The position numbers and the translations under genes are program-made. A stretch of DNA of 64,000 nt from an uncultured Chloroflexia bacterium (GTDB lineage Bacteria; Chloroflexota; Limnocylindria; Limnocylindrales; CSP1-4): contig CAVVCZ010000001.1 of NCBI GenBank assembly GCA_963746845.1, forward strand, positions 192,001 through 256,000, read 5' to 3'. A model generated the notes under the pieces. The model made no database searches, was not told where the DNA came from, and saw nothing but the letters and a program-made list of their open reading frames with translations. Numbering within the stretch: the first letter of the stretch is position 1; each line of letters begins with the position of its first letter. Shown here piece by piece: positions 53,521 through 56,181 of this stretch.

Positions 53521-56181
53521 TCAGCCGTGCCCGTGGCCGGCGTGCTCACCGCCGTCCGCGCCATGGCCGGCCGTCAGGGCCGGGACGTGGCCGTTGCCGT
53601 TGCCGTCGTGCCCGTTGCCGGACCCGTCGCCGAGCTCCTTCGCGACGTACGCCGCGACCGATGCCGGGAGCATCGGCAGCAGCCGGGTCGGGGCGACGGG
53701 TCGGCCTGCGGCGGCCGCCCGCTCGGCCCAGTCGCGCTCGCGCCGGATGTAGGTCATCTCGGTCTCCTGGTCGACCGTCGCGAGGGCGATCAGGTCGACC
53801 ATCGGATCGACGCGCGAGGTGTGCGAGAGCTCGAAGTCGCCGCCGTCGCGCAGGGCGTCGTACGGGCACGCGTCGACGCAGATCCCGCACAGGATGCAGC
53901 GGCTCTCGTCGACGTCGTACGTCTGGAGGACGCGCGGCTTCGGCATCAGGGCGCCGGTCGGGCAGGTCTCGGCGCATCGGCCGCACGACACGCACGGGGT
54001 GTCGTTGAGGCTCATGTCGAGCGGCGTCGTGACGAGGGTGTCGAAGCCGATCCGCATGAAGTCGTAGCAGGCCGCCCCGACGACCTCGGAGCAGACCTGC
54101 GCGCACCGGCCGCAGTCGATGCAGCGCGAGGGCTCGCGCAGGATGAACGCGTGCGAGTCGTCCCGGATGTAGTCATGGTTGATGCCCGTGAACCGGTTCT
54201 CGGTCACGCTCCGGTAGCCCGCTCCCTGGTGGTTCTGCGGCTCGAGCGTCTGGAGCGTCGTCCCGTACTCGATCCCGAGACGGCGGAGGTCGCAGAACCC
54301 GATCGCCTCGCAGGTGCACTGGAGACAGCGCGTCGACTCCGCGACGACCTCCTCGCGGGTGTACGGGATCTCGTACTCGATGTAGCTGTCGTTGCGGACG
54401 CTCGCGGGCATCGCCTTCAGGCGGTAGCGGGGCTCCTTCTGCTCGCTCGTGAACGGGACGATCGAGAGGAACTCGGGCTGCGGCTCGGCGAGCTGCTGGC
54501 GGGTCTTGATCTCCGACAGGTCGAGGCCCTTCAGGAAGGCGTCGACCGCGTAGGCGGACCGGCGGCCCTCGGCGACCGCCTGGACGACGGTCGCGGCGCC
54601 GACACGGACGTCCCCGCTCCCGAAGACGCCCGGGCGGTCGGTGAGGAAGGTGACGGCGTCGGCCTTGAGACGCCTGTTCCGGGTCGGCTGCGGGCCTTCG
54701 GAGCCCGGCCCGATCCAGGTGAGCTCCGGGCCCTGGCCGATCGCGAGGAGGACCCGGTCGCACGGGATGACGAACTCGGTCCCCGGGGCCGGCTCCGGCC
54801 GGCGCCGCCCGGACGCGTCCGGCTCGCCCGGCCGGTTCCGGATGAACTCGACCCCGGTGACCTTGCCCTTGGCGTCGGTGATGACCCGCGTCGGGCCCGC
54901 CTGGAAGATCGCCTGGACGCCTTCCTCGATCGCCTCGTGGACCTCGTTCGCCGCCGGCATGTCCTTCATGTCGCGGCGGTAGACGAGGGTCACCTCGGCC
55001 GCGCCCTGGCGGATCGAGGTGCGGCTGCAGTCCATCGAGGTGAACCCGCCGCCGATGACGACGACGCGCTTGCCGGCGTGGCCCGGGTAGGGCAGGCCGA
55101 GGGTCGCCGTTCGGAGGTACTCGAGGCCGTCGAGGACCTCGGCCGCGTCCTCGCCCGGCACGCCGAGCTTGTTCGTGTCGTAGCAGCCGATCGCGATCAG
55201 CACGGCGTCGAAGCCCTGGTTCTGGAGGTCGTCCAGCCCGAAGTCCTTGCCGAGCTCCGCGTTGCAGACCATCTTCCCGCCGAGCCGGGTCACGGATTCG
55301 TACTCGGCCTCGAGGACCTCGACCTTCGGCAGGCGGTACTGCGGGATCCCGTAGCGGAGCATCCCGCCGGGCGCGGCGTCGCGCTCGAAGACGGTGACGT
55401 CGTGGCCCGCGATCAGCAGGTAGTACGCGGCGGCCATGCCGGCCGGCCCGGAGCCGATGACCGCGGCCTTCCGGCCACTCTTCGGCTGGACCTCGAACGG
55501 GATCGGCGGGTCCTCGCCGTCGTCCAGCATCATCTTGATGACCTGGTCGCCGGCGTAGCGATGGGAGTCGCGGATCGCGATCGCCTCGTCGACCTCGTCG
55601 CGCCGGCAGTGCTCCTCGCACGGCGCCGGGCAGACCCGGCCGAGGACGCTCGGGAACGGGATCGTCCGCTTGAAGATCCGGGTGGACTCGCGGAAGTTCG
55701 CCTCGGCGTTCGCCTTCAGGAAGCCCGGGATGTCGATGTGGCTCGGGCACTTGTTCTGGCAGGGCGGCAGGCAGTAGGCGTTGTGGTCCGAGAAGATCAG
55801 CTCGAGGTTCGTCCGGCGGAGACGGCGGACCTCCTCGGTCTGGGTCTTGACGACCATGTCCGGCTCGCACGTCCGCGAGCACGAGATCGGCGGGTGCTCC
55901 TCGCCCGCGACCTCGACGACGCACATCCGGCACGCGCCGAAGCCGGGCAGCTTCGGCTCGTAGCAGAGGGTCGGGATCTCGATCCCGTTGTCGCGGCAGA
56001 CCTCGAGGATCGTCTGCCCCTCGAAGCCCTCGACGACCCGGCCGTCGACCTCGATCCGGATGCGCGGCGACGACTGCGGCCGTTGCGGCGACTGGGTCGT
56101 GATCAGCCGCTCGGCGAGGCTGTCGTCGAACGGCTCGAGCGTGTTCGTTTCGACGTAGGGGCGCGGCAGCAGGTCGGTCAT
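53521..56181 (-). CDS. 886-aa hybrid: NuoG N-terminal Fe-S domains + GltD-like FAD/NAD(P)H oxidoreductase + NuoI C-terminal half
   Basis: [98 protein letters not shown]. Confidence 0.88.

Follow-up and report, generated by a model that had tools for sequence, protein, structure and literature searches.

The input module (N-module) of respiratory complex I is usually treated as a fixed NuoEFG unit that uses reduced nicotinamide adenine dinucleotide (NADH); known alternative inputs are F420H2 via FpoF, and ferredoxin in cyanobacterial NDH-1. The gene considered here, G', lies on the minus strand of a 64,000-nucleotide stretch of DNA from an uncultured Chloroflexia bacterium (assembly GCA_963746845.1, contig CAVVCZ010000001.1, positions 192,001 to 256,000). 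This whole stretch is called the window, and coordinates below refer to it. Domain content and gene context show that G' encodes the predicted large iron-sulfur (Fe-S) flavoprotein of the only respiratory complex I seen in the organism's 92%-complete assembly, and that a three-gene module, by its similarities descended from a soluble Stn/NfnABC (Bfu-type) transhydrogenase for the phosphorylated cofactor NADPH, lies inside a split nuoI. An earlier reading of the letters alone (the original prediction) had proposed a NuoG-type protein of complex I with a GltD-type flavin domain for NADPH input, and the gene does sit within a bona fide complex I operon.

As judged from sequence, the closest solved relatives of G' are StnC and NfnA of the Bfu-type transhydrogenases. 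PDB entry 8oh5 is StnABC of Sporomusa ovata (PMC10482914), and 9BOV is NfnABC of Caldicellulosiruptor saccharolyticus with NADH (PMC11829005). StnC is a NuoG/GltD fusion with a non-bifurcating flavin adenine dinucleotide (FAD), a NADPH site and two GltD clusters. Its K170 is a cluster ligand at the flavin-proximal cluster, and its FdhF-like domain is catalytically dead yet required for tetramer assembly. Electrons take the path FAD-C7-C6-C5-C4-C3-B1-FMN (FMN, flavin mononucleotide), a two-cluster branch toward the FdhF-like domain is called a non-functional remnant, and reversibility is reported (PMC10482914). Bifurcation needs at minimum the site [B1-FMN-C1], and B3/B4 are the exit clusters (PMC11829005). 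According to Kremp et al. (PMC7483475), the motifs HxxxCxxxCxxxCP and CxxCxCxxxxC are the scar left where GltD was integrated into a NuoG-like protein; they give the distribution of Stn as Firmicutes, Proteobacteria, Synergistetes and Euryarchaeota. NsoC, with a partial C-terminal domain, is named among the closest StnC homologues (PMC10482914), in keeping with the kinship to NsoC-type proteins that had been proposed for G'.

G' is a single open reading frame of 886 amino acids. Its ATG is at 56181, 8 nucleotides past the TGA of the upstream NuoF-like gene (F'), and its stop codon is at 53521-53523. Because the G+C content of the window is ~70%, there are many spurious overlapping frames; the real one was recognized by its domain matches. 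The original prediction gave the span as 53930-56181, of which the upper end stands, but the lower end (at about residue 750) drops the last 136 residues, as the gene runs to 53521. The parts of the gene are as follows:

53521..56181, minus strand: G', StnC/NfnA-type Fe-S flavoprotein plus the C-terminal half of NuoI (open reading frame; Pfam, NCBIfam and PDB matches)
55837..56064, minus strand: 2Fe-2S domain, N1b-type, residues 40-115, ligands C73, C84, C87 and C101 (Pfam Fer2_4, E 4.6e-19; cysteines invariant in 11/11 aligned sequences)
55534..55818, minus strand: His133 of the interrupted N5 motif and GltD N-terminal Fe-S domain, residues 122-216, with HxxxCxxxCxxxCP, C184/C188/C192 and Lys171 (Pfam; alignment)
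54565..55470, minus strand: FAD and NADPH Rossmann domains, residues 238-539 (Pfam Pyr_redox_2, E 6.8e-29; invariant motifs)
54292..54327, minus strand: CxxCxCx5C (C619, C622, C624, C630), supplying the cysteines of the N5-type motif after the GltD insert (invariant in 11/11; same motif in 9bov_A)
53947..54144, minus strand: ferredoxin-type domain with two CxxCxxCxxxC, residues 680-745, N4-type plus one more cluster (Pfam Fer4_Nqo3, with Fer4_7 matching there too; eight Cys invariant)
53800..53934, minus strand: C-terminal half of NuoI, residues 750-794, with C762, C765, C768 and C772-P773, then FEL (NCBIfam TIGR01971; Cys invariant)
53524..53799, minus strand: C-terminal tail, residues 795-886, poorly conserved, with a His/Gly-rich end (11-sequence alignment)

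The Pfam profile NADH-G_4Fe-4S_3 matches residues 122-138 with only its positions 1-17 of 40, so that the His-cluster motif is severed after the His. Fer4_20, the GltD/DPD Fe-S domain, matches residues 137-216 (E 3.8e-17). The GltD-type unit that separates the His ligand of the N5-type cluster from its Cys ligands is complete, with two 4Fe-4S sites, the FAD motif GSGPAG and the NADPH motifs GGGFTSMD and YRR; the N5 motif is interrupted by ~480 residues, and N1b and N4 motifs are present. Pfam and motifs thus agree with the predicted layout of a 2Fe-2S domain and a GltD/NfnB-like unit between the two sets of N5 ligands, and the FAD motif GxGPAG, the second motif GGGxTxxD and YRR are all present as described. 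The absence of a molybdopterin-like domain also held: no molybdopterin family was found in G' among the Pfam families listed (25 out of 27).

The C-terminal ~135 residues open with the C-terminal half of NuoI: positions 71-115 of 121 of TIGR01971 fall on residues 750-794 (E 7.6e-13), and Pfam Fer4 matches residues 756-778. The best family match, far stronger than chance would give, is NF009454 (PRK12814, 'putative NADPH-dependent glutamate synthase small subunit', 657 positions). It has the same 2Fe-2S, GltD and cluster layout and matches residues 41-700 with E 8.4e-162 and 540 bits (curated cut-off 916), but the model does not reach the latter half of the ferredoxin domain or the NuoI half. 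TIGR01318 (E 6.2e-92) and TIGR01316 (E 4.3e-86) cover residues 139-550, both under their full-length cut-offs. G' contains what characterizes GltD/NfnB, namely two N-terminal [4Fe-4S] sites with FAD and NADPH domains, but as an internal domain of an 886-residue protein and not as a stand-alone subunit partnering GltB or NfnA. Nor is it a NuoG overall, for which a contiguous Hx3Cx2Cx5C N5 motif, N1b, N4, a molybdopterin-like C-terminus and a TIGR01973 score above the cut-off of 470 would be expected; G' scores 83.9 bits. The very end of the protein (window 53524-53650, residues ~845-886) is rich in His, Gly and Asn, with several GH and GN repeats. Among the 11 aligned sequences only the two of the window's genus have such an end, which may be metal-binding or merely disordered.

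Conservation of the cofactor sites was followed in an alignment of 11 G' sequences with 43-88% identity to the window (alignment A1) and in a regular-expression scan of 159 related loci. The loci fall into a close group, 'Candidatus Limnocylindrales/Limnocylindria', and a distant group, Ktedonobacteria; the anchor motif was found in 78/80 loci of the Limnocylindrales type and 78/79 of the Ktedonobacteria type. Invariant in 11/11 are the four 2Fe-2S cysteines, SDH133, the six GltD cysteines (C137x3C141x3C145P and C184/C188/C192), G243xGPxG248, G377GGxTxxD384, Y401R402R403, C619xxC622xC624x5C630, the eight ferredoxin-domain cysteines, and the four cysteines and Pro of the NuoI half. Lys171, equivalent to StnC K170, is kept in 10/11 of the aligned sequences and in 76/78 anchored loci of each type. 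In the same anchored loci CxxCxCx5C occurs in 78/78 and 78/78, and the three CxxCxxCxxxC motifs behind the GltD unit in 78/78 (Limnocylindrales type) and 76/78 (Ktedonobacteria type). The YRR that had been taken as a sign of NADPH use is present in 78/78 and 66/78, respectively; the 12 misses may be offsets of the search window.

The partner genes and the rest of the operon are also encoded on the minus strand:

57579..58241, minus strand: I'E', 220 amino acids, with the N-terminal half of NuoI (~58008-58208), a linker and the NuoE N-terminal helical domain (~57678-57869) (TIGR01971, Pfam)
56189..57556, minus strand: F', trimmed NuoF/StnB-type FMN subunit, 455 amino acids from the ATG at 57556, a start set by orthologue comparison; the longest open reading frame starts at 57610 (Pfam, PDB)
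~62453-62818, minus strand: nuoA (NCBIfam)
61719-62462, minus strand: nuoB (NCBIfam)
61171-61719, minus strand: nuoC (NCBIfam)
~59933-61174, minus strand: nuoD (NCBIfam)
58238-59578, minus strand: nuoH (NCBIfam)
52963-53511, minus strand: nuoJ (NCBIfam)
52577-52966, minus strand: nuoK (NCBIfam)
50572-52566, minus strand: nuoL (NCBIfam)
48888-50561, minus strand: nuoM (NCBIfam)
47413-48891, minus strand: nuoN (NCBIfam)

The genes are contiguous, in the order A-B-C-D-H-I'E'-F'-G'-J-K-L-M-N. The ten remaining Nuo subunits are ordinary, seven of them (B, D, H, K, L, M, N) exceeding curated NCBIfam cut-offs, and the set NuoA, B, C, D, H and J-N that marks a respiratory complex I is present in the operon. 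A 133-residue minus-strand frame directly downstream of nuoN (46941-47342) is glyoxalase/VOC-like by the look of its sequence.

The most unusual feature is the split NuoI, with its halves fused to the module. I'E' matches TIGR01971 positions 1-66 of 121 and then positions 2-65 of 145 of the Pfam NuoE family 2Fe-2S_thioredx. The two NuoI pieces, 1-66 in I'E' and 71-115 in G', are exactly complementary. The break in NuoI thus falls between its two CxxCxxCxxxCP motifs; the E'-F'-G' cassette fills this gap and is joined in frame to a NuoI piece at either end. The two motifs, found in an ordinary NuoI within one polypeptide of ~120-180 residues, are here on two proteins, and both are invariant (C56, C59, C62 and C66-P67 in I'E', alignment A2). 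The NuoE part of I'E' is the helical N-terminal domain only, without the cluster-binding fold and without a 2Fe-2S domain. In families f2 and f3 (families are numbered here, f1 being the window's own) a degenerate thioredoxin-like domain without the second Cys pair is left; in f1, including the window, this domain is lost. By analogy with the role of the NuoE N-domain in complex I, the remnant is probably only an anchor of F' to NuoI. A complex prediction for I'E' residues 1-105 with G' residues 745-835, each with its own alignment, gave a score of 0.29 against a mark of 0.32, which speaks neither for nor against binding of the two NuoI halves. The original prediction was right about the GltD insert but missed the NuoI half in G', the other half on a cluster-less NuoE, and the trimmed NuoF between them.

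In the window's genome (12 contigs) nuoD occurs once, and no second NuoI-like gene was found with I'E' as the query at E<=1e-5; this operon is therefore the only complex I seen in the assembly.

F' is a recognizable FMN subunit (Pfam Complex1_51K, E 1.9e-36; NADH_4Fe-4S, E 3.9e-18). It aligns to StnB residues 111-527 of 584, and so does not have the N-terminal domain (first ~110 residues) or the C-terminal ferredoxin domain of StnB; no ferredoxin domain was found in it by Pfam. In alignment A3 (11 sequences, down to 30% identity) GLRGRGG, K90, N122, D127 and E214/E215 are invariant. D127 aligns with StnB D186 and Nqo1 E97, and StnB D186 is linked to NAD+ protonation (PMC10482914). With this NAD(H)-site acid kept, NADPH input is probably in addition to NADH and not instead of it; the original prediction was supported in its conserved FAD/NADPH unit but had overlooked this subunit. 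At residues ~106-120 of the 473-residue frame (window ~57250-57295), just ahead of the flavin-site motif, F' has a 15-residue insertion that is missing from the same-genus orthologue and every other aligned sequence.

Searches of the PDB place the module with the soluble enzymes. The best match of G' is 9bov_A (E 1.6e-161, G' residues 41-772 on residues 4-699 of 1178), followed by 8oh5_C (StnC; E 3.9e-139) and 9n5u_A ('NfnA'; E 1.2e-136); GltD/NfnB-type structures are 4ylf_B (E 1e-75) and 5jca_L (E 3e-71). F' matches 9bov_B with 322 bits, StnB with 312 and HydB with 309, versus 270 for the best complex I NuoF structure, ~222 for Escherichia coli NuoF and 205 for Thermus thermophilus Nqo1; StnB/NfnB are thus its closest kin, as StnC/NfnA are of G'. 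Like StnC and NfnA (8oh5/8oh9; 9bov/9bp5; archaeal 9n5u), G' has a HydA/NuoG-type 2Fe-2S domain, GltD set into the His-cluster motif via HxxxCxxxCxxxCP and CxxCxCx(4-5)C (both motifs of Kremp et al.), FAD and NADPH motifs, the Lys ligand position and a 2x[4Fe-4S] ferredoxin domain. It differs in length, with 886 residues that end 114 residues past the close of the 9bov_A alignment (residue 772), and in having the NuoI half in place of the C-terminal FdhF/molybdopterin-like tetramerization domain of the 1172-1178-residue StnC and NfnA. The NuoE-like partner of Stn/Nfn has a 2Fe-2S cluster, whereas here the cluster is gone and the remainder is fused to the NuoI N-half, and the partners of G' do not form [B1-FMN-C1] with a B3/B4 exit. 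Stn/Nfn occur in anaerobes; G' is encoded in the membrane complex I operon of an aerobic-type member of the Chloroflexota.

Canonical complex I (T. thermophilus Nqo1-3 and Nqo9, 2fug/4hea) shares with this system the operon context, the ordinary NuoA-D/H/J-N, the FMN subunit, the 2Fe-2S, His-ligated and N4-type motifs of NuoG and both CxxCxxCxxxCP motifs of NuoI. In contrast to it, NuoI here is on two polypeptides, NuoE is without the N1a cluster, and G' adds an FAD/NADPH unit and two clusters while having no molybdopterin-like domain; the I'E'-F'-G' genes lie between nuoH and nuoJ, whereas canonical N-module genes lie between nuoD and nuoH. NsoABC, the NADPH-dependent sulfur oxidoreductase of Thermococcus litoralis, also combines a GltD-type NADPH unit with NuoG-type clusters, but NsoABC and the SfrAB of Geobacter are soluble, without NuoI fusion or nuo operon; SfrB is listed in PMC7483475. 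Mbx-like operons (Degli Esposti 2015, PMC4758237; compared by description only) place a GltD-type NAD(P)H flavoprotein on a complex-I-like membrane enzyme, as here. That flavoprotein replaces NuoI and is the NAD(P)+ reduction site of a ferredoxin-oxidizing complex, whereas in the window NuoI is kept, although split, together with a full NuoF/NuoG-type chain. In the full-text literature searched, which did not extend to subscription journals or supplementary files, a split NuoI or a Stn/Nfn-type module in a nuo operon is not described; the same applies to the available text of PMC4758237, PMC12361115, PMC6776052, PMC3971608, PMC7483475 and a 2021 bioRxiv Chloroflexi preprint. As far as the searchable literature shows, this is a new variant of complex I.

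On balance, and by a modest lean only, we think that the operon encodes a proton-pumping complex I fed by NADPH through FAD, and probably also by NADH through FMN, without bifurcation. NADPH would donate a hydride to the FAD of the GltD unit, and from the two GltD [4Fe-4S] clusters electrons would move on, as in StnC, to the His-ligated cluster and along the NuoG-type chain. They would leave through the ferredoxin-domain branch, which is a dead end toward the FdhF-like domain in StnC; since that domain is replaced by a NuoI half ~20 residues after the ferredoxin domain, the branch is the likely exit to the two NuoI clusters, rebuilt from two half-proteins. From there, electrons would reach N2 in NuoB and then quinone, with NuoH/A/J/K/L/M/N pumping the protons. 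Binding of FMN and NAD(H) is probably retained in F', which would let NADH feed the same wire. Because C1 (the NuoE 2Fe-2S cluster) and the B3/B4 domain are missing, the [B1-FMN-C1] site cannot form, and a non-bifurcating dehydrogenase is expected; the same two absences rule out reading the complex as a bifurcating enzyme.

Several points weigh against a pump with two donors. Substrate, direction of flow and coupling are read from homology only, and the exit route into NuoI is deduced by analogy, from the gene fusion and the description of Stn. A plain Fe-S wire between the NADH and NADPH sites would equilibrate the two pools, in effect a short circuit, and PntB is already present in the genome. 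The flavin site of F' is remodeled: NADEGDPG of StnB has become NAYDADP in the family and NGYGADP in the window. The second Cys of the F' N3/B1 cluster is missing in all 77/77 Limnocylindrales-type loci with a recognizable motif (53 have Thr there and 24 have Ser), and given this loss the NADH arm may work differently or not at all. The AlphaFold2 model of G' (11-row alignment, mean predicted local distance difference test score 55.6, with residues 561-846 and 848-886 <50) is uninformative for residues 561-886. The genes may be expressed: in four soil metatranscriptome runs, contigs with 90-100% likeness to the region span parts of 26-28 of its 30 bins, and the F'/G' junction is bridged by three of them; two of the runs (X12 and X16) are near-identical and may be one data set. 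This is a weak hint, as contigs from RNA libraries may contain DNA and may stem from relatives. Sequencing runs that share sequence words with the region do so in small shares only (0.17 or less), too little for a claim on habitat or strain.

The changes in F' could also mean that it is a structural relic holding the module together in a dedicated NADPH:quinone oxidoreductase. F' is the least conserved subunit: in tblastn comparisons of the window with f2 it has 51% identity (lowest of 13; G' 73%, NuoD 77%), and with f3 44% (lowest of 12; G' 57%, NuoD 58%), these being local identities that differ in coverage. The lowest value for F' and the high one for G' fit a central role of the FAD/NADPH subunit, as far as sequence can tell. 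The altered flavin-site motif, the lost N3/B1 Cys and the degenerate or deleted NuoE cluster domain point the same way, and PntB together with a possible NDH-2 (a weak match of 25.6 bits, under the cut-off) could handle NADH elsewhere. Against this, the F' frame is intact in 11 aligned loci, and GLRGRGG, which is the FMN phosphate loop, and the other invariant residues named above persist down to 30% identity. The lost Cys also co-varies with a gained His-Glu by the fourth Cys: its context is LCDHE in 76/77 Limnocylindrales-type loci (LCAHE in the window), whereas Ktedonobacteria-type F' has CGKC(V/I)PCR in 71/71 and LCGFG in 63/71. This pattern suggests a ligand swap, to Glu or His, rather than decay. 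Use of NADPH alone thus seems unlikely to us, though it deserves to be kept in mind.

We give a small chance to NADH being the respiratory donor, with the FAD/NADPH arm serving redox balance: it could sense the NADPH pool or act as a built-in, non-bifurcating NADPH-NAD+ transhydrogenase. A single Fe-S chain links the two nucleotide sites, which are both conserved, as from FAD to FMN in Stn, and the ancestors of the module are transhydrogenases. But F' is the least conserved subunit and G' among the most conserved, PntB is already at hand, and the occurrence of the variant beside a canonical NADH complex I in Ktedonobacteria argues for a job different from NADH oxidation. Reverse operation, the second option of the original prediction, in which the proton-motive force drives quinol electrons uphill to NADP+ to make NADPH for biosynthesis, is improbable. 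Canonical complex I is reversible, the Stn/Nfn enzymes are too (for Stn, see PMC10482914), and the YRR site for NADP(H) is conserved; but with this as the only complex I in Limnocylindria genomes, forward respiration would be without a coupling-site-1 enzyme, and PntB is available for NADPH formation driven by the proton-motive force. Nor was a chemolithotrophic context found in the window, though no search aimed at it was made. It is very improbable indeed that a soluble, bifurcating Stn/Nfn-like transhydrogenase is merely encoded within the nuo operon, or that the layout is an assembly or frameshift artefact: G' and F' are most similar to soluble enzymes, but both NuoI halves are translationally fused to module proteins, and the genome yielded no intact NuoI at another place. 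Clusters C1 and B3/B4 are missing, as is the FdhF-like tetramerization domain, and an artefact was rejected since the layout recurs in 78/80 and 78/79 independent loci and in named isolate genomes.

If the operon does encode such a pump, its dedicated FAD/NADPH entry would give NADPH a new way into respiration. With the input module tethered by a split core subunit, the peripheral arm would be more modular than thought, and the system would be a natural example of a soluble redox module grafted onto a pump. The carriers are abundant soil and freshwater Chloroflexota, and cultured Ktedonobacteria among them make the enzyme testable at the bench. How it arose is a more tentative matter. One possible course, to which we give somewhat less than even credence, is that an 11-subunit complex I ancestor gained an input module a second, independent time, when three soluble Stn/Nfn transhydrogenase genes inserted into nuoI and the halves became covalent anchors. 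The result would be a two-flavin pump that directly respires NADPH, the stronger reductant in vivo, with the dead-end branch of Stn turned into the quinone exit; the pump would have replaced any other complex I in Limnocylindria and would work beside the canonical NADH enzyme in Ktedonobacteria.

When the G' protein was searched against 41 genomes of relatives, counting that of the window itself and an unpublished one (G010), 41/41 gave a match, mostly full-length orthologues and in a few cases partial or weaker, paralogue-level matches only. Identity is 86-96% within the genus; for a second family, whose genomes are ~1.1 Mb in size, it is 73-75%. At E<=1e-150, G' was found in 92/401 sampled Chloroflexota genomes; this sample overlaps the one used for I'E' and may include its six unpublished genomes, none of which is among the matches. 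By family, the genomes with a match out of those sampled are:

f1 23/23; f2 4/4; f3 15/16; f4 2/2
f9 5/5; f24 26/28; f28 10/11; f19 1/2
52 further families together 5/130; remaining listed families 0

In 4 of the 92 genomes (two of f49, two of f32) the matches end at about residue 767-774, in frames of 838-1243 residues that are unfused, StnC-like forms. I'E' as the query matched 370/401 genomes, mostly by the NuoI part alone; matches spanning both halves were found in f1-f4, f9, f28 and f46, and none of the six unpublished genomes carries the fused form. Scans of one genome per species gave 577 and 293 related stretches. Ktedonobacteria carriers include named isolates of Dictyobacter, Thermogemmatispora, Tengunoibacter and Ktedonobacter.

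The whole operon order is kept in f1, f2 and f3 by tblastn, in f3 confirmed through nuoM, inside which the fetched stretch ends. The order is B-D-I'E'-F'-G' in f4 and A-B-C-D-H-I'E'-F'-G' in one f19 genome. In Ktedonobacteria B-I'E'-F'-G' lie at one locus in 9/10 named isolate loci, and A-C-D-H at a separate locus in the three genomes examined. A canonical complex I is likewise present in the Ktedonobacteria searched: four genomes have an additional NuoB and NuoD, and four an additional NuoH and NuoK. In the Limnocylindria examined the variant is thus the only complex I, and in Ktedonobacteria it comes as a second one. Five Dictyobacter isolate loci (L156, L158, L163, L165, L185) have two tandem G' copies after nuoB-I'E'-F', as do genomes G070 and G272, and a second Ktedonobacter robiniae locus (L200) has G' without upstream partners. 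Two f4 loci of the window's class (L033, L039) have no membrane genes nearby, and their F' cluster keeps the full Cys set.

In a library of 1.84 billion representative proteins, 4539 match G' at E<=1e-30. Most of the best 150 are StnC-like, with 975-1409 residues and 36-46% identity; among these 150, only one full-length representative (P0131, 816 residues) has a NuoI-type C-terminus, and a few fragments of the window's own group are also there. An unrooted tree of 50 rows was made with IQ-TREE (quick search, LG+G4) from all 12 fused forms, P0243, all 9 short forms and a random draw of 28/110 other long forms. The 11 Chloroflexota sequences linked to complex I form one group, with a Shimodaira-Hasegawa-like approximate likelihood ratio test (SH-aLRT) support of 98. 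P0131 and P0243 are its sister (98), and all of these are set apart from 36 StnC-like and short forms; FastTree on all 141 rows gave the same 13-row group. The f4 G' groups with Ktedonobacteria and not with f1-f3 (support 100), which hints at transfer or an old duplication.

Elsewhere in the window's genome, contig C6 (468913-470751, L001) encodes a 612-residue fusion of NuoE to NuoF in which the 2Fe-2S thioredoxin-like domain is complete. The frame after it encodes a NuoG/FdhA-like protein that carries 2Fe-2S, 4Fe-4S and the first part of a molybdopterin Fe4S4 domain. As the true N-module this pair was rejected: no nuo genes adjoin it, and it is I'E'-F'-G' that the fused NuoI halves mark as attached to the complex. 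The pair is probably a soluble NAD-linked dehydrogenase. Two further observations come from the library. P0243 (1049 residues), sister to a NuoI-fused form in the tree, joins a StnC-like 2Fe-2S/GltD/ferredoxin N-terminal part to the beta subunit of a PorB-type 2-oxoacid:ferredoxin oxidoreductase (NF008819, E 7e-109). It may be a NADPH-linked 2-oxoacid oxidoreductase. Six StnC-like proteins of 812-853 residues (P0142, P0162, P0163, P0205, P0213 and P0236) all end in ...DHCARL, where formate dehydrogenases carry selenocysteine (Sec) or Cys, and are probably gene calls truncated at a TGA selenocysteine codon.

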